A stretch of 64,000 bases of DNA, taken from contig CAYHIK010000001.1 in the NCBI GenBank assembly GCA_964356795.1, positions 3,111 to 67,110 on the forward strand, in the 5' to 3' direction. The position numbers and the translations under genes were made by a program. Each line of letters starts with the position of its first letter. The stretch's first letter is position 1. The notes beneath the pieces are model-generated. The model worked only from the letters and a program-made list of their open reading frames with translations, made no database searches and was not told the DNA's origin. The stretch is from an uncultured Candidatus Saccharibacteria bacterium. Its GTDB lineage: Bacteria; Patescibacteriota; Minisyncoccia; 2-02-FULL-40-12; GWA2-44-9. Below, in pieces: positions 42,621 through 59,828 of the stretch.

Positions 42621-43985
42621 ATGAGGAAGATTTCCCTCTTATTTTCTGACTTTTTGGCATTTTATGGGGCTCTAGCGCTCATACTTTTGGCACGATATGG
42701 CGCCTCCCAATGGTCTAACCAGTGGGATGTCCACGTCGCGCCATTCTCGATTTTGCTCGTGGTATGGATTTTTGCACTCTACATCGCAAATCTCTATGAA
42801 CAGCGCACCATGCGTAATGACCGTGCGTTCTTCGAGCGACTCGCCCAGGCAATGACCGTTGCAACCATTGCGTCGATTATCTTCTTCTATCTTATCCCTA
42901 CGTTCGGCATCGCCCCAAAGCTAAACCTATTCTTGTTCCTCATCACACTCGCCGCGCTCATGTGGGCGATCCGACTCGGCTACAACCGCGTACTCGCATC
43001 GGGCTCAAAGAAAAACATCCTCGTCGTTGGCCATAATCAAGAATCACTTGAGCTTGTTCAGTTCATTTCCGAAAATCCCCAGTTCGGATACCGTGTTGCG
43101 GGAATCCTCCGCATCGGCCAGCATGAGCTCCCACTCGATGAACGCCCCATCTTGTGCCCCATCATCGAATCTCTCCAGGACGCGCCTGCGTTCATCGACA
43201 CAGAAGATATTGCGCTTGTCGTCATTAGCCCGTCAGCGTATGCGATGCGGGAAGTGGTAGACCTCTTCTTTGGCACGCTTTCCCAGCGCGTCGACTTCAC
43301 GAAGCTCGCCACATTCACCGAGACACTCACCGGCACCGTGCCATTGGGAGCCATCGACCAAACATGGTTCCTCGACAATATCTCGCAACACTCTCGTCGT
43401 GCATTCGACGTCATCAAGCGCGCCACGGATATCGCAGCCGTCGTCGTGCTTGGAATTCCAACGCTCGCGATACTACCATTCGTAGCGCTTGCAATTTATG
43501 CCGAATCCCCGGGCCCCATCTTCTTCACCAATCGACGCACTGGCCGAGGCGGTAAGCCGTTTGATATGTTGAAGTTCCGCTCCATGCGACCCGACGCTGA
43601 ACGCACCACCGGTGCTGTGTGGGCATCACAGAACGACCCCCGCGTAACCCGCGTCGGCAAATTCCTTCGCACCACTCGAATTGATGAACTCCCTCAACTC
43701 GTCAACATTCTCCGCGGAGAAATGTCCCTTGTTGGTCCGCGAGCAGAACGCCCAGAATTCGACTCTCAACTCGCTACCCAAATCCCCTTCTATCGAGAGC
43801 GCTATCTCATCAAACCAGGACTCTCAGGTTGGGCACAAATTAACTACCCGTATGGGTCTTCCGTGCAGGACGCGGAGCATAAGCTCGAGTACGATCTCTA
43901 CTATATCAAGCATCGTTCACTCGTGCTTGATGTCGAGATTATCCTCAAAACAATCAATATCTCGATTCGACGGGCGGGGCGCTAG
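42621..43985 (+). CDS. polyprenyl-phosphate sugar phosphotransferase (bacterial sugar transferase/WbaP family)
   Basis: N-terminal TM helices and a C-terminal DELPQLVNILRGEMSLVGPR...PGLSGWAQ signature. Confidence 0.8.
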   Translation: MRKISLLFSDFLAFYGALALILLARYGASQWSNQWDVHVAPFSILLVVWIFALYIANLYEQRTMRNDRAFFERLAQAMTVATIASIIFFYLIPTFGIAPKLNLFLFLITLAALMWAIRLGYNRVLASGSKKNILVVGHNQESLELVQFISENPQFGYRVAGILRIGQHELPLDERPILCPIIESLQDAPAFIDTEDIALVVISPSAYAMREVVDLFFGTLSQRVDFTKLATFTETLTGTVPLGAIDQTWFLDNISQHSRRAFDVIKRATDIAAVVVLGIPTLAILPFVALAIYAESPGPIFFTNRRTGRGGKPFDMLKFRSMRPDAERTTGAVWASQNDPRVTRVGKFLRTTRIDELPQLVNILRGEMSLVGPRAERPEFDSQLATQIPFYRERYLIKPGLSGWAQINYPYGSSVQDAEHKLEYDLYYIKHRSLVLDVEIILKTINISIRRAGR

Positions 43986-46255
43986 GGGCGACCGCCAAGA
44001 GAAATGATGAATTGCGTTGCTGCGTCAATCACCGCCTGATCACCATTCGCCAGCTCAATCACCTTACGCGCCGCAGTAATCGCATCTTGAACCCTACCAA
44101 GATTGGCATAGGTATCTGCGAGTAACCTCATATACTCAAGATTCGCGGGGAAATTTTTCACCATGAGCTCAAGTACTTGGGCCGCGTTTGCCATATCGTT
44201 GAGTCGAAGATGAGTATCGAGCAGCCGCTGCGCATCCTCCTCGCTCATTGCGTATCCCTTGTTCACGGCCATCGTCATTAATTTTGCAGCATCCTTGAGA
44301 ATCACCGGGTCATTCCCCTTGCCCGCCATCGCAAGCCGTACGGAACCAAGATACCAATATGAAACTCCCACCTCTGGTTGTAGGTCTACTGCTTTCTTGA
44401 ACCACTGGTATGCCGAGAGATAGTCGGCCTTGTTGAGATACACCTGCGCAATTTCATAATACGTGCGCACAAAGGTTGGGCTAATATCGAGCGCCTTCAT
44501 AGATTGCTCGAGTGCCATGTCGTTGTACGGACTCTTAGAGCTTGTGGAGCCCAGCGTACTATACACGCGCGAGAGGTAGAGGTAGGGCAAGTAGTCGAGC
44601 GGATTCTCCTGGATATTCTTTTTTACATCCTCCGCGACGCGCAGAGAAACTTTCTCAAAATCTGGAATCTTGGAAATATCAGTTGTAGAACCAAGTTCGA
44701 GCAAGTACTGCGCGAAGCGATGGCGATATTCGTATCGTCCAGGCACATCGTACTCAATCGCTTCTCGGTATTTATTCACCGCGCCAACCCAATCGCCGTC
44801 CCAACTCGCAACAATCGCGCGAGTTGAGGCATAGTTCGCAAACGATGGCCGCACATTTGTGCCATACACGAATAGCGCCGTAACGATAGCCAGGAGTCCC
44901 GCAACGAATATCTGCGGAGCGGACCACGACACACGCCGAGCAATCTTGAGCGGGGCAGCATCGACGGAGCGCCACGCAACGTGAATGACGTACCCAAGCA
45001 ACGTGAAGAACGTGATGAAATTGGCGCTCGTATCGAAGATAAAGGAATTGTGCACGACGTAGGCAATCGTCATCGCAGTAAATCCAATACCAAGCACACG
45101 CTCATCGCCACCACGCTTCATCATGTGAGCCAACGCGATAAAGAGCATCGCAAACATCGAGAGATATGAGAGCAACCCCACCAGACCCATCGTCACGAGC
45201 ACCTCCATAAACATATTATGGGCGCGATCAAAGAAAGTCTCCGATCCTGGTCCATTGAAGAACTTCGGATTGAAGTGCTTGCTAAACGGTATATTGAAGT
45301 TTTCCGGACCCCAGCCGACGAGCATCGTCTTCGGGCTTTCGCTCCATCCCTTAAGCCCCGCTGACCATGCCCAAAAACGAGTTTGCACGGTAAAGGTACT
45401 CGAAGAGAAATCGGTTACACGACGCAAGTACGGCGAATTCTGTACGAGTGAGGTCGGGCGAAGTGCAAGCCCGAGGAATACGAACACGATAACGCTCGTC
45501 AATCCTCCGAGAAGCAACTTCTTCGCAAGCTTGCTCCGATTGAGTACACTCCAGAGAAGGGCCCAGCTAATACCACCCAAGACAATACCAATGAGCGATC
45601 CGCGGACAGCGGTCGAAATAACCGCTCCAAGCATGAGGGCGGCCGCGCCTCGATACCATATCCTCCAATTCTTCGTCGTGCGACTCATGAATGACATCGT
45701 GAGCGCTAAAAATGCAACAAGAATCTGATATCCCGCAAAGAGCGCCGTGTTCCCAATAGTTCCGAAAATTCTCGCTCTTCCCCCGCCACCCATAATAAAG
45801 CTCAAGTCGGTCTTCTGGAGCACGCCGTACATTGCTGAAAGAAAACCAACGCCCACAAAAAGATTCAAAAGAATATCCCAATCATTGCGCGTTCGCACCA
45901 CAGAAACGAGCATCACTAGGTACGCCACATAGTGCCAAAAAGTGAACAGGCCACCCATACGCTCGAGCGTGCCCCAGAAACTCTGGAGAAATGCCACAGA
46001 TGTTGCGGTGGTGAGCGAGAATGCGGCCGCAAATGCAAGGAACGCCCACAGAATCGGGTGGCCTTTCGGTAAATAGCTCCGATCACGCCATACCAGCAAG
46101 GCGTAGAGCGGAATCATGATTTGAACGATGCTTCGAAATATAACCACCTTTCCGAAATGGAACGGCGAAACGTACTGACTAAAAATAATCAGCGGTACAA
46201 ACGCGATTGCGTAGATTGCATAGCGCAAGCACCGAGAGAGGAATGATTCGTTCAT
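43982..46255 (-). CDS. Wzy/O-antigen-ligase-like polytopic membrane protein with C-terminal TPR repeats
   Basis: About 12 TM segments with a Wzy_C-like region, then a ~250 aa TPR-like helical repeat domain. Probable ATG at 46255 (MNESFLSR). Confidence 0.5.
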   Translation of the reverse strand: MNESFLSRCLRYAIYAIAFVPLIIFSQYVSPFHFGKVVIFRSIVQIMIPLYALLVWRDRSYLPKGHPILWAFLAFAAAFSLTTATSVAFLQSFWGTLERMGGLFTFWHYVAYLVMLVSVVRTRNDWDILLNLFVGVGFLSAMYGVLQKTDLSFIMGGGGRARIFGTIGNTALFAGYQILVAFLALTMSFMSRTTKNWRIWYRGAAALMLGAVISTAVRGSLIGIVLGGISWALLWSVLNRSKLAKKLLLGGLTSVIVFVFLGLALRPTSLVQNSPYLRRVTDFSSSTFTVQTRFWAWSAGLKGWSESPKTMLVGWGPENFNIPFSKHFNPKFFNGPGSETFFDRAHNMFMEVLVTMGLVGLLSYLSMFAMLFIALAHMMKRGGDERVLGIGFTAMTIAYVVHNSFIFDTSANFITFFTLLGYVIHVAWRSVDAAPLKIARRVSWSAPQIFVAGLLAIVTALFVYGTNVRPSFANYASTRAIVASWDGDWVGAVNKYREAIEYDVPGRYEYRHRFAQYLLELGSTTDISKIPDFEKVSLRVAEDVKKNIQENPLDYLPYLYLSRVYSTLGSTSSKSPYNDMALEQSMKALDISPTFVRTYYEIAQVYLNKADYLSAYQWFKKAVDLQPEVGVSYWYLGSVRLAMAGKGNDPVILKDAAKLMTMAVNKGYAMSEEDAQRLLDTHLRLNDMANAAQVLELMVKNFPANLEYMRLLADTYANLGRVQDAITAARKVIELANGDQAVIDAATQFIISLGGRP

Positions 46256-46271
46256 AGTGATATATTCTATT

Positions 46272-47537
46272 TTATTTGCACCCCCGAAGCAACGCACGCT
46301 CATACCACTCAAGTGCGCGTTGCGTGTGAATTGCTCGAGTAAAATGCGCTTCGACACGCTCGCGACCAGCAACGCCCATACGCTGTCGAAGCTCGTCATC
46401 GCCTAAGAGTTTCGAAATTGTTTCCGCCATTCCGTCGGCATCAAATGGATTCACCACAAAACCCGTAACACCATCGGCAATAATCTCCGGAGTCCCTCCA
46501 AAGCGTGTACCAACAACGGGCTTTCCCGCAGACATCGCTTGCATGACCATGAGCGGAGCTGGGTCGAAATAAATCGACGGCACCACAACAATGGTTGCAG
46601 CTGAAAACAATGCGGCACGCTCCCTTTCGTGGAGGAGATCGATGCAACGCAGGGCGTGAGATGCGCCCTTCTGTTCTGCGTAACGAATCAGGGAATCCCG
46701 ATACCCACCACGTTCAATTGCCATCACCACGAGAGCGCCTGGGTGAGACTTAAGCACCTGGGGAAGCGTATTGATGAGCACCTCGGACCCCTTATCCTGC
46801 ATGGCACGCCCTCCAAATAGCACGATGGGGCGATTCCCAAAACCAAGCCGCTCACGCAAAGCTACAACCTCGCTATCTGACGCCTGAAACTCAAGCGGCT
46901 CGACACCATTGTAGAGTGTCGTGACGTTCTGAATACCATTTTGGCGAAGCGCATTCCCCAGCGCATCCGAGACGGAAAAAATTGCATGCGCGCTTCGGAG
47001 CGACCGCCGGATACTCCACCTTCGAAATGGATTAAAGGCCTTCCCAACTTGGCGGATAGTAAACAGTATTGGGACGCGATAATCAAACGGACCACGCTGA
47101 TGCGCATTGCTCGAATCAATAAAGTGATAGAGACGCGTATACGCAAAACTCAACGTGTCATGCAGTGTAATGAACACGGGAATGCCAATCGCGTGAATCC
47201 ATCGAAGCGCCGCAAATGAAAAATGCTCGTGCACATTGTGGGCGTGCACAATATCCGGTTTGAGTTTTTGTATAATTGAAAGAGTCGCTGAGCGTATAAA
47301 TGGATTGTTTGCGGAAAGATACGAACGCACAAACTGTGATGTTCGTGGGGCATAGATTCGATGCACCGATATGCCCGCATACGTCGAAACGCCCTCGCCT
47401 TCCTTGTTCTGCGTCGTGGTAATCACATCTATGCTATGCCCGCGCGCCATCATGCCCGATGCCATGTCGAGGGCAACCTGTCCCGCGCCTCCCACACTTT
47501 CAGGCGCAAACGAATCGGTAATATATACAATCTTCAT
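46272..47537 (-). CDS. glycosyltransferase family 4
   Basis: MKIVYITDSFAPESVGGAGQV N-terminus and a GT4 C-terminal EX7E region (...FGGTPEII...). ATG at 47537. Confidence 0.75.
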   Translation of the reverse strand: MKIVYITDSFAPESVGGAGQVALDMASGMMARGHSIDVITTTQNKEGEGVSTYAGISVHRIYAPRTSQFVRSYLSANNPFIRSATLSIIQKLKPDIVHAHNVHEHFSFAALRWIHAIGIPVFITLHDTLSFAYTRLYHFIDSSNAHQRGPFDYRVPILFTIRQVGKAFNPFRRWSIRRSLRSAHAIFSVSDALGNALRQNGIQNVTTLYNGVEPLEFQASDSEVVALRERLGFGNRPIVLFGGRAMQDKGSEVLINTLPQVLKSHPGALVVMAIERGGYRDSLIRYAEQKGASHALRCIDLLHERERAALFSAATIVVVPSIYFDPAPLMVMQAMSAGKPVVGTRFGGTPEIIADGVTGFVVNPFDADGMAETISKLLGDDELRQRMGVAGRERVEAHFTRAIHTQRALEWYERALLRGCK

Positions 47538-48154
47538 TATTTCTTTTTCACAATGATGAAGCTGTCCGAAAACACCTTCCGGGGATGCGACCACTGATCA
47601 AACCAGAGAAGCGCGCCGTCGATTCGCCGCATTAACCCCTTTCGTATGCGCGACTGCTTCTTGTAGGGATCAAAGACGAGAAACTTCAGATATGAAGACA
47701 GAAGTGCCCATATGCCGCCATACACCCCCCTCTCTACAACATCGCACTGATGGCGCCGAGCGATAGCGCTCAATCCTTCGGGGGTGTACCGGAAAAAGTC
47801 GCCCGGATCTGCGTGCACAGGCTGGGTGAATGGCGCAGTAATAATCGCATGACCGCCAGAGCGCACCACGCGCGAAATCTCACTCATGAGCTGTTCGGGA
47901 TGAGGAACGTGTTCAAATACTTGATTACAAATGACCGTATCAAATTCCCCCTCTCCGAATGGCATATGCAAAACATCGCCCACGACGTCGACGCCGCCGC
48001 CTGCGGATGTATCGATGCATGTGTACGACGTGGCATGTTGAAGGATAAACGATTTGTATTTTGTCGCTGAGCCGCCACCCGCATCAAGTACCCGCCCAGA
48101 GATATATGCGCTTGCATGCACTAATACATCTCGCGTTGTGTGAATATTTTTCAT
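47537..48154 (-). CDS. class I SAM-dependent methyltransferase (type 11)
   Basis: VLDAGGGSATKY motif I and DTVICNQVFEHVPHPEQ. It is a paralogue of the MTs at 48151-48795 and 58314-58973. Confidence 0.7.
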   Translation of the reverse strand: MKNIHTTRDVLVHASAYISGRVLDAGGGSATKYKSFILQHATSYTCIDTSAGGGVDVVGDVLHMPFGEGEFDTVICNQVFEHVPHPEQLMSEISRVVRSGGHAIITAPFTQPVHADPGDFFRYTPEGLSAIARRHQCDVVERGVYGGIWALLSSYLKFLVFDPYKKQSRIRKGLMRRIDGALLWFDQWSHPRKVFSDSFIIVKKK

Positions 48155-48795
48155 TTCTTGAGAATGGCAAGCCAGCCCATAGTATGCTTTTTATTTGCGG
48201 CGCTCGTATCAATCCTGTCTAAGAATATCGCGCAACGCCCTACAATGGAAAAACATCGGCTCGCGATGGCGCCAATAATTCTATGTCGGTAGAGTCCACC
48301 ACGATCAATGAAGTATCTGATGCAGAATTGCGTCATCATAGAGAACATCCCGCCACGGGGAACGAATCGCACAACCGAAAGACCACACTCGCCCGCGATA
48401 CTCTCAATCCAATACTTTGTGAACCGAGAAAAATCATACGGCTCTTCATGTAGTTCGCACGCCTGCGGAACCGTTAGCAAGATCGTACCCCTAGGTCGAA
48501 GCACCCTGCTCATTTCGTGCATTGCCTGCTCAGGATGCACAACATGTTCGAGCACCTGTGTGCACACAATTCCATCGAATGACGCATCGGGAAATGGAAT
48601 GTGTTCGGCCGAACCGACGACATCAATGCCGTCCTCCTTTCGGATATCCATTCGAACATATGAATCAAATGTAAAGTAGTGTCGGTAACGCGCGACCGAA
48701 CCAGCCCCAACATCAAGCACCGCGCCTCCGATGTGCGATGCATGTTCTTTGATGTGCCGGTCAAGCAACATGCGATCAATTTGGAAGATTTGCAT
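48151..48795 (-). CDS. class I SAM-dependent methyltransferase (type 11), tandem paralogue
   Basis: VLDVGAGSVARY and DGIVCTQVLEHVVHPEQ. ATG at 48795, 4 nt from the flippase stop. Confidence 0.7.
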   Translation of the reverse strand: MQIFQIDRMLLDRHIKEHASHIGGAVLDVGAGSVARYRHYFTFDSYVRMDIRKEDGIDVVGSAEHIPFPDASFDGIVCTQVLEHVVHPEQAMHEMSRVLRPRGTILLTVPQACELHEEPYDFSRFTKYWIESIAGECGLSVVRFVPRGGMFSMMTQFCIRYFIDRGGLYRHRIIGAIASRCFSIVGRCAIFLDRIDTSAANKKHTMGWLAILKK

Positions 48796-48799
48796 AGCG

Positions 48800-50131
48800 T
48801 TATGCTGCTGACGCCGTACGTAGATAGCGCCGCGTATACAAGAATATCGTAGCGTGAGCAATGACATACCATGCCGTCACAATTCCAATCGTACCCCACG
48901 CGCCAAAGTGTTTTATCGCAAACAACGCAAGAGGTACGCCGACTCCTAGGTTCACCGTGTGCATTATGATAGAAACATGAACCTTATTGAGCGCTCTCAA
49001 AATTGAACCAAGACCTACGCCAAGACCCATGAGCGCACCGTAGGGAACAAGCGCGTACACATAGCGCACGCTCTGCGCAAATTCAGGGCCATAGAATATC
49101 TTAAACGCTATCGGGGCCACAAGCGCGGCCCCAAGAGTGAGCCCCGTCGAGATGCCGACCGCATACATAGTGACGCGGACAAAGTTTCTCGAGAGTCGCG
49201 CAACTCCCTGTACTTTCATTTTTGGAAATTCAACATTGAGGAGCATTCCTATGGGACCGAGAAATCCAAGCGCCAGGTTAATGTACGCAAATGCGAGTTT
49301 GAAAAACGTAACTTCCGACGGTGATACATAAATACCCGTGAGAAGGATGGGGAGGATGTTGTAGAGATTCGAGAGATTCCTATCAACGGCAATCCAGAAG
49401 CTATATCGCAAATATTTCTGAATAGAAGCTTCGCGCGCATACGCAAGCAAATCTCGAATCCTCGGAAGTATCGAAAAATCTCGCTGTAATCTCTTCCACA
49501 CAACGACTGACGCGATGCAGAGAATGCTTGCACCAACAAAATGACCAGACACGATACCGCCCACACCAAACCCCGCTATCACAAACGAGAGAGCAAACGT
49601 GGTGCGCAACATCTGATCACTCAATCCAAGTATCGTCATCTGGCGAATGCGCCCCACAACCTGGGAGCCAATCGTCGAAAAAGAATACGCCGTCGTCGAG
49701 ACGATCGATGCACAGATAACAACCGCCGCGAACCATCCAATCGCGGTCGTGCCATAGAGCTGATACGAGATAAGTGGTGCCAGCGCCGCACCAAAGAGCG
49801 TTACAAAACTCATGATAACGGTAATCTTCACAAGAAACGCCAGCGCGTCACGGATTTCTCGCGCATCTTTCCGCGCATACGCCTCGCCCAGAATCGTCGT
49901 CACTGCATCCTGCGCTCCTACGCCAAGAAAAATTGAAATGAACCCCGCGAGACTGAATGTAAGCGCGTATACGCCAAATGCTTCGGGCTGAAGCACGCGA
50001 GCCATAATAATACCCGCAATAGCTTGGAATACGTTTCCAAACATGCTCCCCGCCTGAAGAATGGCAGTATTTCGGACAAATGTATGGGTGCGAAAATACT
50101 CGATTTTCTCTCGAATCTGCGCGATTGACAT
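48800..50131 (-). CDS. Wzx-type oligosaccharide flippase (MOP/polysaccharide biosynthesis protein family)
   Basis: 443 aa with about 12 TM segments and a typical PST-family N-terminus. Confidence 0.6.
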   Translation of the reverse strand: MSIAQIREKIEYFRTHTFVRNTAILQAGSMFGNVFQAIAGIIMARVLQPEAFGVYALTFSLAGFISIFLGVGAQDAVTTILGEAYARKDAREIRDALAFLVKITVIMSFVTLFGAALAPLISYQLYGTTAIGWFAAVVICASIVSTTAYSFSTIGSQVVGRIRQMTILGLSDQMLRTTFALSFVIAGFGVGGIVSGHFVGASILCIASVVVWKRLQRDFSILPRIRDLLAYAREASIQKYLRYSFWIAVDRNLSNLYNILPILLTGIYVSPSEVTFFKLAFAYINLALGFLGPIGMLLNVEFPKMKVQGVARLSRNFVRVTMYAVGISTGLTLGAALVAPIAFKIFYGPEFAQSVRYVYALVPYGALMGLGVGLGSILRALNKVHVSIIMHTVNLGVGVPLALFAIKHFGAWGTIGIVTAWYVIAHATIFLYTRRYLRTASAA

Positions 50132-50166
50132 GCGCGCATACTAGCACGGAATGACGCGAAAATAAA

Positions 50167-53100
50167 CTAAAATAGCGACTTTATATATTCTTGCGTCAGC
50201 ACCCCCGCATACTCAAATAGCACCGTGTGCTCCCCTGCAGGGATGGGGAGACCGTGGAAGAGGTAGTTTGCCATGTAGGATTGTGTGGGGGCGCCGTCGA
50301 TGGTGATACGCCATCCGGGGAGATTTGATTCGGAGAAGACGAGCCAGCGATCATGATTTGTTTTTGTCATGAGGCGAAGGTATCCGTCACGGTATGCTTC
50401 GATGGTAATGGAGTCGGATGAGGTGTGTTGATTCTTGATTGCTCCACAATCTGCGCATTCGATGAATGTGGTGTTTGCGAAGTTTGCATTTGATTCGATG
50501 ATTGTTTTGAAATTCTTCTCTTCATCAGTCTCGGATACATGCGTAATGCCCCGTGCAAAGTAGATGCGGGGCATGACAGTCGTGTTCTCGTAGAGATAGA
50601 TGGGGATGTTGAATCGCGTAGATGATGCCTCTTCGAGTAGCTGCAGACCAGAGGTTGCGGGGAGCTCATACGCGGAGATGAGGTACTTCACGTTCAGCAT
50701 GGAGAGGACGGGGAGGCGGTGTGAGAAAAGAGATAGTTTTTCGGGTAGCGAAATGCTTTCATTTGCGAGCGATGCAAACCGCTGGTTCGATTCACTCCCC
50801 ACAAATGCCAGAACTCGCTGCCCCCTTCGTGGCGCCATCGGCTCATAGCCGTCGATGGTCGCAATGCCTCGCAGAAGGCCGGTATTGGGCATGAGCGAAT
50901 CAATGCCATACATCATCGCATCTCTGGATGCACCCTCATTGATTGCGGATATGCGCTGAGATCCTGCAGAACCATAGAGGAAGCTAAACGTACGAAAACT
51001 CATCGCATCATCGCCTCTCGAAAGAATCGCATCCGCGATTGGGGGCGACGAAGAGAGCGTATCAGACCGCGCAAACGTGTGCCCCATCATTCCCGATACA
51101 CCAAGCAACACACACGAAGTAACCACGGACGCCACGGCAAATGCCTTCGCATCTCTCGCATATTGGGCCACCAGATAGACCGCAGCGATAGATGCTAGAG
51201 CGATCAAGAAACTTGCATCTCCGAGCGAAAAATTATCGAAAGAATTTTTCACGATTCGCTCGATGAGTGCGTGGTAGTACTCAAGAGGAAGCCCCGTCGT
51301 GCCCTGATACATTTTCTCTGTGAATTGATGCTGAACGTATCGGATAATGCTCTCGCCCGCCACTGCAAATACCAGAGTTGCTGTCGTGGCAATGCCAAGC
51401 ACGCTAATAAACGCACGTCTTGAATATAGCTGGATACTCGCCCTCACACCCTCCCAATGCTCTATCGTCCACTTCATGCCATAGCCCGCCAGAATTGCCA
51501 TCGAAAAATTAAGAACAAACGTCCATCGAGCTGGCCCACGGAAATACTCCAACACGGGGAGCTGATGGAGTACCCAAAATATGGGGGAGTATTTAAATGA
51601 AGCAATAATCACACCAGCGCTCAGCAAGGCAAAGAATCTAACACTGGATTCGCTCTTGTACATCTTTGCCACCGCAATGAATGCAAATACGAGACCAAAG
51701 ATACCGATATACGGCAAAAATTCGGCGGACACACCGTATCGAAATGAAAAATACGGAAATACAAACTTTATCAAATCCAATGGCGTCGCCGCATCGACAC
51801 TTGCCTGCGCAAGAGTAAGACCGCCGACTCTCGTTGAAAGCGGAGTAAATACCGCCACATATATAAACTGCGGGAGTCCAATAATAAACGCCACGAGAAG
51901 CGCACCAATTGCACGCCCACTATCCCAGATGATGCCCCTCAGGCTCTTTCCCGCCTTGCGCGCCGCAGACTCAAGCCACAGCCAATAGAGCGCAGCGACC
52001 ATGAGCGCCATAATCACGAACTGTTGATGCGACCCCAAGAACGAGAGTCCAACGAGTGCCGAGTAAAACAGCGCCGCCCACCGTGACCCCCTCACCATAC
52101 TCCGCGCCATGAGCAATGATGCGGGCAACACATACACTGCGGAAACAACAGCGATATTTCCAAGCCAATGCGCGGTGAATTGGCCCAGTGTAAACGTAAT
52201 CGCGACAAAAAAGCTTACGAGCCGACTTGAGAATAATTGCCGAGCAAGTGCGTAGCTTAAATATCCCGCAAGGAGAGCAAAGAATACTACGAGTGCATTA
52301 TAACTTCCAGAAAAAGCGCGATAGATTGGATGAAAGAACCCCCACTGAAATGACGATGGAATCGGAAATCCCGAAAGAATCCCAGAAGTCCACTGAGTTC
52401 CCATGATTGAGCTATCCGGATAAAATACCCCAACCGCGTCTCCATCAAAGAAGATATATCTCTGCCCAAAGAATACGCCGAGACAAATGAGCGCAAATAC
52501 ACCAAGCAGTATAAATCTTCGACGCAACGGATTCTCATCATACGCGCCAAAAAAGCGCCGAGTCCAAACTTGAAGAAGTTCCCAGAGCGTGTAGACGTAT
52601 GATCCAATCGATATTCGAGATATAATTGGCGCCGTATACGTAATAGGTATCTCACGAATATCTAAGCCTCGAGCATTTGCAATTGCGAGCATCTCTATAT
52701 CAAACCCCCAACGCATGAGCGAAAGCCGCGAGAATAGTTCATGCGCCAAACTCCCACGAATCATTTTCAAGCCACGTTGAGTGTCGATGATATTCCAACC
52801 CATAACGAATCGGATTAATCGCTTTGCAAGAAGCCCCAATACGCCTCTTTTCCAAAATTGACCGCCAGGGGCGATGCCGGGAGCGGACGCGATTAATACA
52901 TCCGCGCCGTCACAGCATTGAGGCCAGAACTTATCCAGCTCTAAAACACTAATCTGCAAATCTGCATCTATGAAGAGTCGGCAGTCTCCCTGTGCCGCCA
53001 GCATTCCCGTTTTTACAGCTGCTCCCTTTCCTCGGTTTCGCTCATGCGACTTGATTTGGACATGTGAAAGATGGAGCCCTTCAACTACAGACCTCGTATC

Positions 53101-53253
53101 GTCCATAGATCCATCATCAACAACAATAATCTCACACGCCATATTCTTTGCATTGAAATAATCCGTAATCGTTTGAATGGTGCGAATAATACCCCTCCCC
53201 TCATTAAAGGCGGGTATAATAACTGACGTCAGTGTGGGTAGCGCTGATTTCAT
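50167..53253 (-). CDS. fusion protein: N-terminal GT2 (DPM1-like polyprenyl-P glycosyltransferase) + C-terminal YfhO-like GT-C polytopic membrane glycosyltransferase
   Basis: N-terminus SVIIPAFNEG...VVDDGSMDDT...DADLQ (the GT2 DxD motif). The remaining ~800 aa have more than 10 TM segments and a YfhO-like C-terminus. 1028 aa. Confidence 0.6.
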   Translation of the reverse strand: MKSALPTLTSVIIPAFNEGRGIIRTIQTITDYFNAKNMACEIIVVDDGSMDDTRSVVEGLHLSHVQIKSHERNRGKGAAVKTGMLAAQGDCRLFIDADLQISVLELDKFWPQCCDGADVLIASAPGIAPGGQFWKRGVLGLLAKRLIRFVMGWNIIDTQRGLKMIRGSLAHELFSRLSLMRWGFDIEMLAIANARGLDIREIPITYTAPIISRISIGSYVYTLWELLQVWTRRFFGAYDENPLRRRFILLGVFALICLGVFFGQRYIFFDGDAVGVFYPDSSIMGTQWTSGILSGFPIPSSFQWGFFHPIYRAFSGSYNALVVFFALLAGYLSYALARQLFSSRLVSFFVAITFTLGQFTAHWLGNIAVVSAVYVLPASLLMARSMVRGSRWAALFYSALVGLSFLGSHQQFVIMALMVAALYWLWLESAARKAGKSLRGIIWDSGRAIGALLVAFIIGLPQFIYVAVFTPLSTRVGGLTLAQASVDAATPLDLIKFVFPYFSFRYGVSAEFLPYIGIFGLVFAFIAVAKMYKSESSVRFFALLSAGVIIASFKYSPIFWVLHQLPVLEYFRGPARWTFVLNFSMAILAGYGMKWTIEHWEGVRASIQLYSRRAFISVLGIATTATLVFAVAGESIIRYVQHQFTEKMYQGTTGLPLEYYHALIERIVKNSFDNFSLGDASFLIALASIAAVYLVAQYARDAKAFAVASVVTSCVLLGVSGMMGHTFARSDTLSSSPPIADAILSRGDDAMSFRTFSFLYGSAGSQRISAINEGASRDAMMYGIDSLMPNTGLLRGIATIDGYEPMAPRRGQRVLAFVGSESNQRFASLANESISLPEKLSLFSHRLPVLSMLNVKYLISAYELPATSGLQLLEEASSTRFNIPIYLYENTTVMPRIYFARGITHVSETDEEKNFKTIIESNANFANTTFIECADCGAIKNQHTSSDSITIEAYRDGYLRLMTKTNHDRWLVFSESNLPGWRITIDGAPTQSYMANYLFHGLPIPAGEHTVLFEYAGVLTQEYIKSLF
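50193..50716. repeat. ~524-bp direct repeat, copy 1 (identical to 53255-53778)
   Basis: The two copies are offset by 3062 bp. The encoded C-terminal ~174 aa of both YfhO-like proteins are identical. The antisense 100-aa ORFs at 50367-50669 and 53429-53731 are also identical in the track. Confidence 0.85.
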
Positions 53254-55643
53254 CGCGTCAGCACCCCCGCATACTCAAATAGCACCGTGTGCTCCCCTGC
53301 AGGGATGGGGAGACCGTGGAAGAGGTAGTTTGCCATGTAGGATTGTGTGGGGGCGCCGTCGATGGTGATACGCCATCCGGGGAGATTTGATTCGGAGAAG
53401 ACGAGCCAGCGATCATGATTTGTTTTTGTCATGAGGCGAAGGTATCCGTCACGGTATGCTTCGATGGTAATGGAGTCGGATGAGGTGTGTTGATTCTTGA
53501 TTGCTCCACAATCTGCGCATTCGATGAATGTGGTGTTTGCGAAGTTTGCATTTGATTCGATGATTGTTTTGAAATTCTTCTCTTCATCAGTCTCGGATAC
53601 ATGCGTAATGCCCCGTGCAAAGTAGATGCGGGGCATGACAGTCGTGTTCTCGTAGAGATAGATGGGGATGTTGAATCGCGTAGATGATGCCTCTTCGAGT
53701 AGCTGCAGACCAGAGGTTGCGGGGAGCTCATACGCGGAGATGAGGTACTTCACGTTCAGCATGGAGAGGACGGGGAGGTGGCGTGAGAATATTTGTAATT
53801 TCTCTTGCAGAGGCATCGAGGCATACGCCAATGAAGCACCCGTCGTAGCTCGCTCACTTCCAAGAAGCGCTATCGTTCGCGCAATGCGCCGCGTCATAAT
53901 ATTGGAAAAACCATCAATACTCAAAGCTCCGTACTGAATGCCAATATTGGGCACCATGAGGTCTCGCTGAAATTCAATAGAATCCGAGATTGAATACGTT
54001 CCCGAAAATGGCTGGTTCAATTTCTGATCTACAGCCGAGCCCGAAAGAACACTCAAATATCTGCCATCAGCGCCCTGCATACGCTCAGAGAATACTGGAG
54101 ATTTAGCAATGACTGATGCAGGAATAATTTGCGTTATATTGGGGTGCACAAAGAAAAGCGAGCACGCTGTGAGCGCAATCGTCGCACCACGTGCATAGCC
54201 GTCAAAGCCACGAACCGCCACCCGTCGAGCAATGAGAATTGCGACTCCGATAGATGCGAATCCAACGAAAAACACGGGATTGAATATGTCAGCATTGGAG
54301 ATAAGAGTATTGAAGAGCGATGAGATTGCGTTGTGGTAATGCTCCGCCGAGAGCCCACCCGTACGCGATGCGAGAAAATGCTCATCAAAATATGCATAGG
54401 CATATGAGAGGATGTGTGGACGAAGCGGAATAATAATCAAGCGCACAACAAGCGCGATAATAGCCAATCCCCCGAACATCCAGCGAAGCACTCGTTGAGC
54501 CCTACCCCATACAGAGTGCGCACCATGCGCTCTCGCGAAATCAAAGCCGATACCAGCCATAATCGCTAATCCAAAATTTCCGATATACATCCACCGATTT
54601 GAGCCACGGAATAGTTCGAGCACGGGAAGTTGATGCATGAGCCAGAACAAGGGGGAAAAGCGGAGTGCTGATAGTATCCCAAATCCAAACAAAAGCAGCA
54701 TCGGTAAAACACGTGAATCTAATCTACGAATCGTATACGCCACGCACGCCAGTATGACGGCAATAATCCCGATATAGAGCGTTGGCTCGGGTGCGTTTAG
54801 CTTGAGAAGTTGCACCCCTGGCATCACATACCACACCCAATCAAATGGGGTCAGAGAAGATATCTGCGCATCCTGAAAGCTCAGCCCCTGCGAGCGAGCG
54901 CTCAGCTCGGTGAATATTTGGGATGGAGAGATTTGGGGCCATGCAAGCAGAAAACCAAGACCCGCGCAGACACATATCAGTGCGAGTGATTTGAGTATGT
55001 TGCGCCTCATAAGCCTATCACTCTTCGCGCGCAAGAACTCAAAGACAGCGAGCAAGCCGACTCCGATATACGCCAAAACAACCCACTGAGGCTGGCCCGC
55101 GATAAGCGCATACCAGGTTGCAAGGAGCGCGATAATCGAAAATGCATAACGCCCGCTCATCCCCCTCCGAAGCGCGATAACGAGAATCGGGAGAAGATAT
55201 ATGGAATTCGCAACGGTTATATTATTGCTCCAATTCGCATTATGAGATCCGAATGAATACGCGATTGCAGTAAAGAGTGATGCCTGTCGAGATAGCGCAT
55301 AGCTTCGCGCGGCTCCAAATGACGCGACGAAAAGGACAGCCAGCGAAATAAATATCTCGATATTGTACGCCCCAACAACGTCAAACGTCCGAAATAGAAA
55401 TTGCGTTAGCGGAGATTCGAGACCACCGATGAGATCGATAAACATGGGGAACCCGCCCAGCATACCAGACGACCACAGAAACGAATTACCATCGCGCAAC
55501 TGCTCCGCAAAAAAAGTAAGACCTGGATAAAAAGACTGAATAGCATCGCCATTTGAATACGCGTAGCCAAATATCTGCGGAATAAAAAAGAGAATCATGA
55601 CTGCGCCAAGCGAAGCAATAGTTAAAATCTTTTTACTCTTCAT
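53250..55643 (-). CDS. YfhO-like GT-C family polytopic membrane glycosyltransferase
   Basis: 797 aa with more than 12 TM segments. Its C-terminal domain is identical to that of the upstream fusion protein. Confidence 0.55.
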   Translation of the reverse strand: MKSKKILTIASLGAVMILFFIPQIFGYAYSNGDAIQSFYPGLTFFAEQLRDGNSFLWSSGMLGGFPMFIDLIGGLESPLTQFLFRTFDVVGAYNIEIFISLAVLFVASFGAARSYALSRQASLFTAIAYSFGSHNANWSNNITVANSIYLLPILVIALRRGMSGRYAFSIIALLATWYALIAGQPQWVVLAYIGVGLLAVFEFLRAKSDRLMRRNILKSLALICVCAGLGFLLAWPQISPSQIFTELSARSQGLSFQDAQISSLTPFDWVWYVMPGVQLLKLNAPEPTLYIGIIAVILACVAYTIRRLDSRVLPMLLLFGFGILSALRFSPLFWLMHQLPVLELFRGSNRWMYIGNFGLAIMAGIGFDFARAHGAHSVWGRAQRVLRWMFGGLAIIALVVRLIIIPLRPHILSYAYAYFDEHFLASRTGGLSAEHYHNAISSLFNTLISNADIFNPVFFVGFASIGVAILIARRVAVRGFDGYARGATIALTACSLFFVHPNITQIIPASVIAKSPVFSERMQGADGRYLSVLSGSAVDQKLNQPFSGTYSISDSIEFQRDLMVPNIGIQYGALSIDGFSNIMTRRIARTIALLGSERATTGASLAYASMPLQEKLQIFSRHLPVLSMLNVKYLISAYELPATSGLQLLEEASSTRFNIPIYLYENTTVMPRIYFARGITHVSETDEEKNFKTIIESNANFANTTFIECADCGAIKNQHTSSDSITIEAYRDGYLRLMTKTNHDRWLVFSESNLPGWRITIDGAPTQSYMANYLFHGLPIPAGEHTVLFEYAGVLTR
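53255..53778. repeat. ~524-bp direct repeat, copy 2
   Basis: See copy 1; sequence identity is inferred from identical translations in two frames and from visual comparison. Confidence 0.85.
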
Positions 55644-57193
55644 GATTTCTTTGCAATCACGAACACGTTGTCATACAGATTAATAGGGATGCTAAGCGAT
55701 GCGAGCCACGACCGCTCGATGACGCGCGCAAAACGACGCACCACAGCAATGCCAGACCAAGAAGCAAGTATCGAGAAGACATACGGAACTGAAAATGATT
55801 TACCAATTGCACCCATTGAGATAACGGTAAAGCCAGCGCGCTCTAGAGCCGTACGCAGTCCAGTCCTAGAAAAAAGCACGAGATGCTCGGGTGGCACGAT
55901 GAGGTGCCAGTGAACACCCCATAATCGAGCCCAAACGCTTCCACTATCCGGCGTGTTTATTGCGATAACTCCATCAGAATTCAAAAGCTTATGCGCAGCA
56001 GCAAGCGCATCGTGTGCGCTCGGCACGTGCTCAAGCACGTCCCACATAGTTACCACTTCGTAGCGCTCACCGGAATCACCCATTGACTCAATCGTTCCCT
56101 GTCGAATATCGAGACCTCTCTCGCGACCCTCCCCAGATGCAGACTCAGATATCTCCACTCCACGAGCGCGCATACCGTATCGATTCGCAAGCGCCACAAA
56201 ATATCCATTCGCCGCTCCAACGTCAAGAAGTGTAGCATCCAACTTCACGCGCTCCTGAATCGCACGAATATATGCGACAAATGTCGATTCTTGGGATTGC
56301 TTGTCACGCTCATAGTCCGCATATCCAAAGCCACCGCCCGCCCCGTGAAAATAGTCCTCTCCATACACGTAGCTCGTGTTGTGAGGTATGGGAAATACAA
56401 ATACCGATCCGCACCTCTTTGATCGATACACCGAGTGTCCATTTCGTCGGCCCATCAATTGGCCATCGCGCTCATCACAAACAGGACATGTAACTTTTTG
56501 TGCCCGTATCTTCCATGGCCCCATAATTCCCTCCCGAATTATGAATCCCGAAATTTTTGATTCGCCCTCTCGACGAGCTTGGAAAATGATGGGGGTCTCG
56601 CGAAATGTAGCACCAGATGACACCAGGGCATATTTAAGCTCCTGAAGAAATGCGTAGCCGGATAAATCGATAGCATCGAGGTCGATGGCGCGAAGGGCAC
56701 GAGTAGTGATGCATTGGTATCCTGTCGTCCAATCTCGAATTGGGTAGCGTAAAATCGTCCGCACGTATAGGTTGGCCCAATAGCTTAATTGCCGACGCCA
56801 TAATTCCCACTTCGCAATTCCCCCTCCCTTCACATAGCGAGAACCTATCGCAAGATCAACGTTCTTCGCTGTTGAAATGAGCTCTGGCAGATATTTGGGA
56901 TGATGCGAAAAATCAGCGTCCATCGTTACAACTCGCTCGACTGATCCATCCTTGAGCACCTCTTTGAATGCTGAAATGTAGGCAGCGCCGAGCCCTTGCT
57001 TGCCAGGGCGAGACATTAATCGAACCGATGCGTGCTTCTGCATACTCGCCCGAACCGCATCAGCGGTACCATCAGGAGAATTATCATCAACCACCAAGAC
57101 GCCCACATCGGGCGCACTCCGAAGAATCTCCTCAATCAGAGATGAGATGTTTCCTCTTTCGTTATATGTGGGCAGAATGACGACCGTTTTCAT
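55640..57193 (-). CDS. fusion protein: GT2 polyprenyl-phosphate glycosyltransferase + class I SAM methyltransferase
   Basis: N-terminus VVILPTYNERGNI...VVDDNSPDGT...DADFS (GT2). C-terminus TLLDVGAANGYF...VVTMWDVLEHV (methyltransferase motifs I and post-I). Confidence 0.65.
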   Translation of the reverse strand: MKTVVILPTYNERGNISSLIEEILRSAPDVGVLVVDDNSPDGTADAVRASMQKHASVRLMSRPGKQGLGAAYISAFKEVLKDGSVERVVTMDADFSHHPKYLPELISTAKNVDLAIGSRYVKGGGIAKWELWRRQLSYWANLYVRTILRYPIRDWTTGYQCITTRALRAIDLDAIDLSGYAFLQELKYALVSSGATFRETPIIFQARREGESKISGFIIREGIMGPWKIRAQKVTCPVCDERDGQLMGRRNGHSVYRSKRCGSVFVFPIPHNTSYVYGEDYFHGAGGGFGYADYERDKQSQESTFVAYIRAIQERVKLDATLLDVGAANGYFVALANRYGMRARGVEISESASGEGRERGLDIRQGTIESMGDSGERYEVVTMWDVLEHVPSAHDALAAAHKLLNSDGVIAINTPDSGSVWARLWGVHWHLIVPPEHLVLFSRTGLRTALERAGFTVISMGAIGKSFSVPYVFSILASWSGIAVVRRFARVIERSWLASLSIPINLYDNVFVIAKKS

Positions 57194-57196
57194 GCG

Positions 57197-58321
57197 CTAC
57201 TTCATTAATGAATCAAATGCCGCGCACACATCTTCAACCGTAATGCGCTCAACCTGACGGCGCGCTTCGGTATAATCATAGATGCGCGCGTTCATAATAT
57301 GCACCACTGGCTCCTTTCGCTCTTTCCAGAGCACCACTACGTGCCCCCGGCCCCGCGGAGGCTGCTCGCGCTCATCAACAGGCCCCACAATATCAACGGT
57401 CTTCACTCCGAATGCTTCGGCAATGTATACAGGACCCGTATCAACAGCAACAAAGACCTGCATTCGAGCCATGAGCGCTTTTAGTGCATCGAGGGAGAGC
57501 GCATGTGATGCATCAATGATTGGCGTACCGCTTGAAACAGCACCCTTGAACGCGATAACTTCTTCCGTGTCAGCTGGCCCACCGATGAGAATAATGCGCG
57601 CCGCATAGTGCGCATAGATATAATCGGCAACTCGCGCAAATCGATCAGCTCCCCAATTTTTTATTTTATTTCCGCTCGATACCGAAATACCAACGACAAC
57701 GTCATTCTCGCTGATAGAATTCTTTTGGAAAAAATTATCAATCTCCTCTCCTGCTTCGGAGGAAAATCCGAGATGCTTCTGCGTGTCGTCTGTAGTGATT
57801 CCAAGCGGCTCAAGAAGTCGTAAATACTCAGCCGGAGCATACGACCCCATGCGATGAGGTCGTGTGATCGCCACGATACTTAATAGTCGATACATCCGCG
57901 TATCGTTTGGGCTAAAGCCATTTTCAACGCGTGGAACCATAATCGCTTTTGCACCACCAAGATACGCGATAGCGAGCGCGGTAAAACTCGGAGCAACCGA
58001 AATGGCCACATCTACTGATAGTTGAGAAAAGCGCGCAAGAACCTCATCGAATTCTGTGAACGGTATATATTCATCAACGTCCTGATTATGACGAAGCAGT
58101 TCTTGATACTGTGGCTGGCCAACTACATACAGTTGAGATTTGGGATATGCCGACTTGAGCGCTCGGAACACGGGAGTCGTGCACACCATATCGCCAAGCT
58201 GCGCCATCTGAAATACAACAATGACTTTTGGGTTCTTTGGAGGCGTCTTTGCGAATCCGTGCAGCACGGCGTGGGCAACACCTCGAAGTAATATCGAGAA
58301 ATACGAGATTTTTTTATGCAT
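57197..58321 (-). CDS. glycosyltransferase family 9 (heptosyltransferase-like)
   Basis: QLGDMVCTTPVFRALK and DTGPVYIAEAFG, the GT9 signatures. Confidence 0.55.
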   Translation of the reverse strand: MHKKISYFSILLRGVAHAVLHGFAKTPPKNPKVIVVFQMAQLGDMVCTTPVFRALKSAYPKSQLYVVGQPQYQELLRHNQDVDEYIPFTEFDEVLARFSQLSVDVAISVAPSFTALAIAYLGGAKAIMVPRVENGFSPNDTRMYRLLSIVAITRPHRMGSYAPAEYLRLLEPLGITTDDTQKHLGFSSEAGEEIDNFFQKNSISENDVVVGISVSSGNKIKNWGADRFARVADYIYAHYAARIILIGGPADTEEVIAFKGAVSSGTPIIDASHALSLDALKALMARMQVFVAVDTGPVYIAEAFGVKTVDIVGPVDEREQPPRGRGHVVVLWKERKEPVVHIMNARIYDYTEARRQVERITVEDVCAAFDSLMK

Positions 58322-58973
58322 GATCGTGCTTGCTTGCTACGAGAAAAAAGGCGCTCGCAAACGCATCCTTTTCTTTTATCGATTTCTTGATGTCGCCATA
58401 GATAGCTCGAAACATCGAGGGCATCTTCTGTAGTATTTTCGCAAATGCAAAAAGTAAGAATTTACTCACCGCATTGAATCGCATACGACTTTGATATCCA
58501 GCTCGCTGTGCAAGAATGGCAAATGATGTTTGTGCGTCAGCCTCTGCTTCGAGTTTTTCTATTGTCCATCCTGAATGAAAAAGCTCTTGAAGTCCGTACT
58601 TTGTAAATCTCCAAAAATCTCCCGGGGCATCGTGTATGGGAAAGAGAAATGGAACGGAAACAATAATACGGCCACCCGCCTTCAGGCATCGACGCATCTC
58701 TGTGATAGCTCGGGCGGGTTCTTTGAGGTGCTCGAGAACCGACATGCATAGAACGACGTCGAATTCCCCATCTTGGAATGGAAGATCGTACACACTAGCT
58801 ACGATGTCTACGCCTGGGCCCGGCTTAATATCGATTCCCGTTCGGTGTTGGAAATACGAGCCATAGCTGGGCTTCCCATAGGAGCCAACCTCCAGCACCC
58901 GCGCATCCGAAGCGTACGGGGCAATGAGTGTGTCGAGCCTTTTTCTGCTTATTTTGTCTGTGAGAAAGCTCAT
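58314..58973 (-). CDS. class I SAM-dependent methyltransferase (type 11)
   Basis: RVLEVGSYG and DVVLCMSVLEHLKEP. Paralogous to the two MTs at 47.5-48.8 kb. Confidence 0.7.
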   Translation of the reverse strand: MSFLTDKISRKRLDTLIAPYASDARVLEVGSYGKPSYGSYFQHRTGIDIKPGPGVDIVASVYDLPFQDGEFDVVLCMSVLEHLKEPARAITEMRRCLKAGGRIIVSVPFLFPIHDAPGDFWRFTKYGLQELFHSGWTIEKLEAEADAQTSFAILAQRAGYQSRMRFNAVSKFLLFAFAKILQKMPSMFRAIYGDIKKSIKEKDAFASAFFLVASKHDHA

Positions 58974-59054
58974 TTTTGCTAGACTTTACGATACCACGCT
59001 CGCACAAAAACAAAAAGCCTTGTATTTACTACTGTATACTATTAAGATTTCTCC

Positions 59055-59828
59055 ATGGAACAGAAGAGTGAAGCATATTATTACGACCTATCCCATAAGG
59101 AGGAACGCTGGGATCAGGGCGATAATAAGCGATTTATTACCCTCATCAACGAAACCGCCAAAGACGTACTCGAAATTGGGTGCGGCACCGCCAGTATCGT
59201 GCCATGGCTCAAGAAAGAGATTACCTATACAGGCGTGGACATTTCCGCGCTCGCTATTCAGCGAGCAAAGCAATTCCATGCAGGACGAGAGCGCACATCT
59301 TTTATTTGCGAATCAGTTGATTCGCTTAATCTTCGACCTGAAAGCTACGACGTCGTTGCAGCGTTCAACTCCCTTGAGCATGTGCGAAATCCCAAAAAAA
59401 TGCTGACACTTATACTGCGCGCATTAAAACCAAATGGCCACATCATACTCACAGGCCCAAATCTAGATTTACCGTGGAGCACACCGAATGGCATACGTCA
59501 TTATAAGGCTCATCAAATCTTCTTCTTTCGATTACTAAGAATGGGCGATTATATAAAAAGGATATTTGGATTTCTTCCTTTTCGCACGATTCCTGAAAAT
59601 TACACGGAATCAACAGGGAAATATGAGAAGCCAGACGATGATTTACGGCACGTACTATCCTCTTTTGAAGTTATCACATGGCTCACACGCAATCACATTG
59701 AAATAACATACACCCCTCAATTCCCTGCGTGCAGGAGCTACAAAGACTACATCAAGCGCGCAATCACATTTCTCCCAGGAATGCGCTACTACGGACGACA
59801 TTTTACTGTTATCGGAAAGAAGAAGTAA
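59055..59828 (+). CDS. class I SAM-dependent methyltransferase
   Basis: [12 protein letters not shown] motif I and [12 protein letters not shown]. It is the only plus-strand gene in the locus and overlaps the GT4 gene convergently by about 20 nt. Confidence 0.65.

Follow-up and report, generated by a model that had tools for sequence, protein, structure and literature searches.

Two adjacent glycosyltransferase genes with a common 3′ end

The 64-kb stretch of DNA analyzed here, referred to as the window (positions 3,111 to 67,110 of the 165-kb NCBI contig CAYHIK010000001.1, from an uncultured Candidatus Saccharibacteria bacterium), carries two neighboring glycosyltransferase genes, called A and B, that end in the same 0.5 kb of DNA. 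Gene A (53250..55643, minus strand) encodes a YfhO-family GT-C glycosyltransferase of 797 amino acids, whose N-terminal transmembrane and catalytic module is specified by positions 53779-55643 of the same strand. Gene B (50167..53253, minus strand) encodes a protein of 1028 amino acids in which a GT2 domain (residues 10-174; 52732..53226, minus strand; PF00535, 94.7 bits in Pfam) is fused to another YfhO-family GT-C enzyme, recognized by PF09586 and by BLASTP against A. The transmembrane GT-C module of B (residues ~246-846; 50717..52518, minus strand) is ~28-31% identical to that of A, and the two genes overlap in the tetranucleotide ATGA at 53250-53253, which contains the start of B and the stop codon of A. 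PF09586 scored 61.8 bits for A and 43.8 bits for B (gathering cut-off 28.5), with most of the signal in the final ~70 residues, within the shared segment. An earlier note on this DNA had described the pair as a GT2-YfhO fusion beside a YfhO-like protein, and the Pfam matches show this annotation to be correct.

In a base-by-base self-comparison, positions 50193-50716 and 53255-53778 form a maximal exact match of 524 bp with 100% identity at an offset of 3062, and a repeat search found this pair to be the only long repeat in the 64 kb. Both copies are on the minus strand, where they make up the 3′ ends of the co-oriented genes and are read in the same frame. They encode residues 623-796 of A (53255..53778, minus strand) and residues 847-1020 of B (50193..50716, minus strand), that is, 174 identical amino acids from LPVLSMLNVKYL to FEYAGVLT, which form the C-terminal extracytoplasmic β-sandwich domain of each protein. 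After the repeat, A finishes with an arginine codon and its stop codon, and B runs on with QEYIKSLF. This B-specific tail, (Q)EYIKSLF plus stop codon (50167..50192, minus strand), is kept in the B orthologs of three related loci (L003, L004, and L005, described below), and the homology between A and B ends there because A stops. When the two genes are aligned by codons outside the repeat, the identity is 31% for the protein, 45% for the DNA, and 33% for third codon positions. Since the remainder of the pair is this dissimilar, identity over 524 bp is far above what chance would give. The repeat coordinates, its perfect identity, the common C-terminus of ~174 residues, and the differing N-terminal membrane domains had all been put forward in the earlier note, and the alignments agree with it on each point. 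Its remark that the translations match in two frames follows trivially from identical DNA; the open reading frame (ORF) in the alternative frame is not conserved. An open stretch of ~100-120 codons in the +2 frame occurs in the window, L003, and L005 and is missing in L138, L076, and L061, and a hidden overlapping gene was rejected on these grounds.

The GC skew is +0.07 to +0.14 over both repeat copies (50000-50999 and 53000-53999), and neighboring 500-bp windows are nearly all negative. The positive skew may reflect the amino-acid composition of the domain.

The gene pair in related lineages

Related loci were collected from the surroundings of the closest homologs and by a genome and metagenome scan with an alignment of the C-terminal domain. 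This gave 137 loci, each of which was compared with itself. The relatives are labeled as Patescibacteria, Paceibacterota, or Saccharibacteria metagenome-assembled genomes (MAGs). As all contigs, including that of the window, are short-read metagenome assemblies, an identity of 100% should be taken as at least about 98-99%.

Three further lineages carry a repeat without a single difference. L003 (GCA_964491455.1, 652-kb contig) has a repeat of 530 bp, and its A and B are each ~77% identical to those of the window. L138 (a WOOD18 scaffold of 171 kb) has a repeat of 519 bp, an A that is 41% identical to that of the window, and a methyltransferase gene between A and B. In L009, a Paceibacterota MAG, the contig ends within the second copy, and the identical stretch is at least 127 bp long. 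Two other lineages show partial decay: the 517-bp repeat of L005 (Hainich H51) is 96.9% identical, with 100% at first and then 82% over the last 30 codons, and the 590-bp repeat of L076/L077 is 91.5% identical. Finally, in the nonhomogenized pairs of L004, L061, L062, and L063, the C-parts are 58-65% identical in DNA and the longest exact runs between A and B are 11-20 nt, which is consistent with an escape from conversion. All ten lineages that have the pair keep both A and B.

Several of these loci show peculiarities of their own. The repeat of L005 (8677-9192 versus 11776-12291) is a mosaic in which the first ~430 bp are 100% identical and the 14 differences are clustered in the last ~90 bp before the A stop codon, as if the repeat were eroding from its 3′ edge or the last conversion tract had been shorter. 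The methyltransferase gene of L138 starts within the first repeat copy (10394-10412) and overlaps the 3′ end of A by 22 nt, so that the end of B has a second copy of the first 19 nt of this gene. What lies between the repeat copies also varies with the lineage: a GT2 domain is fused to B in the window and L003, and L005 and L138 have a separate methyltransferase gene. L067 and L076 share a contig (Ga0209518_1002482) with four YfhO-like genes in a row, the last two of which represent a separate, younger duplication (N-part 57% identical in DNA with patches to 81%, C-part 88-97%), and a further pair on this contig has 73-75% identity across 454 bp of the C-part. Between L061 (2722-3579, 6687-10792) and L062 (7803-8662, 12495-16600), the flanks and the last ~860 bp of A are ~90% identical in DNA, and the N-part of A (~60%) and the whole of B (51-56%; 51-60% overall) have been replaced. 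Glycosyltransferase modules thus look like cassettes that can be swapped from one genome to another as well, and the breakpoint falls in roughly the same region. Such module exchange is typical of surface-glycan loci.

Probable recurrent gene conversion limited to one domain

In a joint alignment of the N-parts, the proteins fall into an A clade and a B clade, each of which spans genomes; only the L076 pair departs from this pattern, having arisen by a separate duplication. Over 200 bootstrap replicates, the nearest neighbor of an N-part was the same type of protein from another genome in 100% (again except for the L076 pair), and the nearest neighbor of a C-part was the paralog from the same genome in 100% for the window, L003, L005, L009, L076, and L138. 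Because the N-parts group by type across genomes, the duplication that produced A and B is old. It predates the divergence of all these genomes, which contradicts the recent duplication that the earlier note had offered as one possible origin of the repeat. The gene conversion that it had named as the other possibility is strongly supported and, moreover, recurrent, with domain-limited identity and a lineage-specific sequence in at least five other lineages.

Between the window and L003, the DNA identity is 77.8% in the repeats and 75-77% in the flanking orthologous sequence. At conserved residues, the agreement of synonymous codons between these two lineages is 0.57 in the repeat and 0.54-0.57 in the flanks. 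Within the window, L003, and L138, the third codon positions of the repeat are 100% identical. As the repeat has diverged between lineages like its flanks, the identity within each genome reflects recent copying per lineage, not a constraint on the DNA or one ancestral event. A functional element at the DNA or RNA level within the repeat was rejected for the same reason, synonymous agreement between lineages being no higher than in the flanks. Two signs of concerted evolution were found, that is, paralogs that are closer to each other than to their orthologs (synonymous sites included) and an incongruence between the phylogenies of the N-part and the C-part.

The absence of any difference in three or four lineages, together with the decay in two more, points to a recurrent process. 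It is therefore very probable that A and B are old tandem paralogs of the YfhO family whose last 0.5 kb have been kept identical by recurrent intrachromosomal gene conversion, in other words, by concerted evolution restricted to a domain. A one-off event, in which a partial duplication of recent date or a segment gained by horizontal transfer left an identical 3′ end with no ongoing process behind it, would fit the mosaicism between genomes seen in L061 and L062. It appears very unlikely, as the three or four independent lineages with zero differences have repeats that differ from each other by >20%, L005 and L076 show intermediate decay, and the boundaries are the same everywhere; events at random times would seldom all be so recent.

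In all six lineages, the 5′ edge of identity lies 0-6 codons from the invariant motif (R)LPxLSMLNVKY, which is the start of the last domain in the structure models. The 3′ edge lies at the last one or two codons of A in the window, L003, and L138, where all homology ends, and ~20 codons earlier than the end of A in L005. A microhomology anchor at LSMLNVKY as the cause of the fixed 5′ border is not supported, since the exact runs of 11-20 nt in the nonhomogenized pairs lie mostly elsewhere. As to the direction of conversion, the repeats of the window, L003, and L005 group with the C-part of B from L004, A from L004 is no close ortholog of A in the window, and the deeper branches are ambiguous.

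Mechanistically, the conversion would proceed by RecA-type homologous recombination, with a heteroduplex that would extend until it meets heterology, namely the end of gene A on the 3′ side and the strongly diverged N-terminal module on the 5′ side. The 5′ boundary would be held because conversion is unable to enter DNA of ~45% identity, because chimeras reaching into the specificity-setting module are selected against, or for both reasons. To judge from fold resemblance and gene neighborhood, the shared domain may bind a common partner, most likely the acceptor glycan. The N-terminal modules may use different lipid-linked sugars, that of A being supplied by the upstream GT2-methyltransferase and that of B by the fused GT2 domain. 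In lineages where conversion has lapsed, the copies would be too diverged for it to restart, as the 11- to 20-nt exact runs in the nonhomogenized pairs suggest. The deletion or amplification of B by crossover would be an expected side effect of this process and not its function.

Several points weigh against this interpretation. No conversion event is seen directly, everything being deduced from end states. Conversion that has gone on since before the lineages split would be very long-lived (the A orthologs of the window and of L009 or L138 are ~40% identical), and the independent reinitiation of conversion between diverged copies, a possible alternative, is hard to explain mechanistically. 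That the shared domain binds the acceptor and that A and B use different donors is proposed from fold resemblance and gene neighborhood only. Furthermore, assemblers can collapse near-identical copies, so that 100% may overstate the identity, and the path A-repeat-B-repeat-tail through the assembly-graph loop is not the sole possible path.

A further-reaching version holds that the identity itself is adaptive. The two GT-C enzymes would depend on a common domain for acceptor recognition, and conversion would spread changes in it to both; the arrangement would have persisted since before the Patescibacteria lineages split, with its border held by selection, and crossover would provide standing on/off or copy-number variation of the B branch. 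We regard this version as unlikely.

Reliability of the assemblies

The contigs raise the question whether the repeat is an assembly artefact, that is, a collapsed or misjoined repeat behind which the true 3′ ends of A and B are different or merely similar. Only short-read metagenome contigs are available, the repeat exceeds the typical read length, and metagenome assemblers merge near-identical variants. In L009, an assembler broke at this very repeat: contig JAGOSO010000005.1 ends at position 12254, 127 nt into the second copy (8071-8197 and 12128-12254), which fits an assembly-graph break at k=127. Such repeats thus fragment short-read assemblies of bacteria of the candidate phyla radiation (CPR). 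The number of repeat copies is likewise not fixed by these assemblies, and low-level differences between copies could have been lost in assembly.

An independent ENA contig from the same population (L001; ERZ1292624, contig 1869), assembled at ~5x coverage from a Hainich groundwater metagenome (well H41, 0.1-µm fraction), has the same structure and the same identical repeat. It differs from the window by one base in 15.7 kb (T versus A at position 45713, within the Wzy_C-TPR gene at 43982-46399). Two assemblies of this population that are one single-nucleotide polymorphism apart hence show the same structure, as do assemblies from at least four other projects or sites, each with its own repeat sequence. 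Moreover, the copies in L005 and L076 differ and were hence resolved unambiguously, and the pattern is the same there. Both junctions are in frame and yield complete YfhO proteins, and L004, which lacks the repeat, confirms the order A-B-flippase and the B-type tail. An artefact is therefore extremely unlikely. The same architecture elsewhere, the two lineages with resolved copies, and the gene order and tail of L004 leave the biology in no doubt.

A proposed recombination switch at the glycan locus

The earlier note had proposed that the repeats are a built-in recombination switch, in which they serve a crossover that deletes or amplifies the 3-kb B module and thereby causes phase or antigenic variation of a surface glycan. 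Identical direct repeats of 524 bp, 3062 bp apart, are indeed a good substrate for homologous recombination. Deletion is predicted to remove B and to leave A in frame, extended by the B tail (804 amino acids), and unequal exchange to duplicate B. The product of the locus is a surface glycan, and loci of this kind are mosaics in this group. With direct repeats of 524 bp, RecA-type recombination can be expected to cause an occasional deletion or amplification, at some low rate.

The remaining evidence speaks against a programmed or selected switch. A Pfam search of 18 ORFs in the region of 40.8-64 kb (with the plus-strand ORFs of at least 150 amino acids at 58924-59406 and 59055-59828 left out) found no recombinase, invertase, or reverse transcriptase domains, and the genes called in the related loci included none of these either. 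Neither the deletion chimeras predicted for the window, L003, and L138 nor the duplication-junction protein of the window were present in an exact look-up among 15 billion proteins, in which the parental A and B are present; this is a weak argument, as each of the organisms occurs in just one or two assemblies. Protein searches with A and B and the 137 related loci also gave no deletion or duplication variants, including no single-gene deletion form, in a sample with one or two assemblies per close relative. None of the 10 lineages with the pair has lost either gene. In addition, a deletion between direct repeats would be irreversible within a lineage because it removes B together with one repeat copy, unlike known phase switches. 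A dedicated switch is thus improbable, and the claim of the earlier note is without support in this form.

Two specialized mechanisms were considered and rejected. A diversity-generating retroelement with template and variable repeats does not fit, as the copies are identical instead of differing at adenine positions and no reverse transcriptase domain was found in the scanned ORFs or the related loci. Site-specific recombination was rejected because the scanned ORFs contain no recombinase and the repeats are identical.

Architecture and predicted function of A and B

A and B each have ~10 hydrophobic segments, and no hydrophobic segment was found beyond residue ~504 of A or ~723 of B, so that the soluble region is C-terminal in both. 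An AlphaFold (AF2) model of A from an alignment of 44 sequences (predicted local distance difference test score 89, predicted template modeling score 0.91) shows transmembrane helices as far as residue ~504, followed by an extracytoplasmic region that comprises residues 505-797. The top Foldseek matches of the model are AftD, ArnT, PglB/STT3, and AftA (E 8e-7 to 1e-3). By their hydrophobic segments, the AF2 model, and the Foldseek matches, A and B have the GT-C architecture of 8-13 helices with an extracytoplasmic domain. The aspartate D33 of A, a candidate for the conserved acidic residue of the first extracytoplasmic loop, is invariant in 13 homologs and nearly so in 44. A sequence search of the PDB with A gave zero matches and hence no sequence relative with a solved structure.

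The GT2 domain of B has a weak likeness in NCBIfam to PgfS, ArnC-type, PpgS, AglJ, and Dol-P hexose transferase enzymes, all far under the cut-offs, and judging from its sequence it is probably a polyprenyl-phosphate sugar synthase. A GT2 enzyme beside a YfhO-family GT-C enzyme, here fused to it, is also found in the CsbB/YfhO system, which together with GtrB/GtrA/Gtr-type systems belongs to the three-component glycosylation systems (Rismondo et al. 2018, PMC5836110; reviewed in PMC8035078). By this analogy, the pairing of GT2 and YfhO-family enzymes predicts that a polyprenyl-phosphate sugar is made inside the cell and transferred to a polymer outside. In contrast to YfhO of B. subtilis, which has a large extracellular region between the last two of its 13 helices, the soluble region of A and B is C-terminal with no helix after it. 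A further difference from CsbB/YfhO is that two systems stand in tandem here, one of them fused, and that the host is a CPR bacterium.

Comparison with known cases of concerted evolution

Near-identical terminal segments combined with divergent specificity regions, homogenized and shuffled by intragenomic recombination, occur in the outer-membrane adhesin paralogs babA/babB of Helicobacter pylori and in flaA/flaB of Campylobacter, the latter also being in tandem. Like A and B, these are paralogs for surface structures with homogenized ends; they differ in that they give demonstrable antigenic or expression variants, whereas A and B are enzymes for which no variants were seen.

The tufA and tufB genes of Salmonella show concerted evolution by RecA-dependent gene conversion, with tracts bounded by the limits of the genes (Paulsson et al. 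2017, PMC5485169). Here too, two paralogous protein genes on the same chromosome are kept near-identical by nonreciprocal recombination, and the tracts are limited by the bounds of homology. However, the tuf genes have the same function, are converted over their whole length, and are distant and inverted, whereas A and B are adjacent and direct, share one domain only, and are otherwise ~30% identical. A second parallel is provided by the release factor paralogs RF1 and RF2, in which only domain 3, whose function the two have in common, undergoes conversion (Ishikawa et al. 2015, PMC4530459). In both cases, ancient and functionally diverged paralogs swap only the domain of shared function, with independent events in each lineage. 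The RF events are rare, old, and deduced from trees; A and B are in tandem, and their copies are 100% identical in DNA in several lineages, which implies that conversion here is frequent or ongoing, unlike in RF1/RF2. A literature search for links between YfhO proteins or Patescibacteria and gene conversion found nothing relevant. The repeat in A and B thus adds a gene family and a phylum to a process that is already known; the example is new, unusually clean, and recurrent, and the system is not of a new kind.

The case offers clean domain-restricted concerted evolution across several lineages in enzymes, with one glycosyltransferase module kept identical between paralogs and the other diverging freely. 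This suggests that the C-terminal β-sandwich of YfhO-type GT-C enzymes is an exchangeable module with a shared function, an idea that could guide domain-swap experiments in a family without a solved structure. It also indicates that homologous recombination actively shapes the surface-glycan loci of CPR bacteria, whose cell surfaces are thought to be relevant to a host-dependent lifestyle. On the practical side, short-read assemblies of these genomes break at such repeats or are misled by them, the contig end of L009 being an example.

The surrounding glycan locus

According to Pfam, the region of 42.6-64 kb is a glycan locus that encodes an initiating sugar transferase, a Wzy-like protein with TPR repeats, and GT4, GT9, and GT2 enzymes, as well as several methyltransferases, a MOP flippase, and a GT2-methyltransferase fusion. 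The fusion gene (55640..57193, minus strand; PF00535 and PF13489) lies directly upstream of A, a synteny that is kept in L003 and L005. Like the GT2 domain of B, that of the fusion has a weak NCBIfam likeness to polyprenyl-phosphate sugar synthases, and the protein is a candidate for the enzyme that makes the lipid-linked sugar donor of A. If CsbB/YfhO (PMC5836110) is taken as the model, two pairs of a donor synthase and a GT-C enzyme are probably encoded here, one of which is fused. Directly downstream of B lies the flippase gene (48800..50131, minus strand; PF01943 and PF13440, with a weak NCBIfam match to MOP flippases); this MOP/Wzx-type flippase was the only one noticed beside B, and no flippase of the GtrA/GtcA type was identified among the ORFs examined, which did not include small ORFs.

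Besides the GT2-methyltransferase fusion, three separate class-I methyltransferase genes are found at 47537-48154, 48151-48867, and 58314-58973. This set of genes suggests a heavily methylated glycan.

Among the Bacteroidales loci with a distant match to the C-terminal domain, tandem paralogous segments of ~1.26-1.34 kb that are 67-74% identical were observed several kb from the YfhO-like gene (L034:655-3262, L041:737-3340, L042:703-3318, L052:673-3272, L054:3464-6057, and L058:3119-5870). They are unrelated to the 524-bp repeat.

Between the glycan locus and the S30AE and SecA genes of the window lies an ORF of 583 amino acids (40774-42525) with no Pfam match. Its position is conserved in L003, L004, and L005, where the corresponding ORFs (575-584 amino acids) likewise have no Pfam match.

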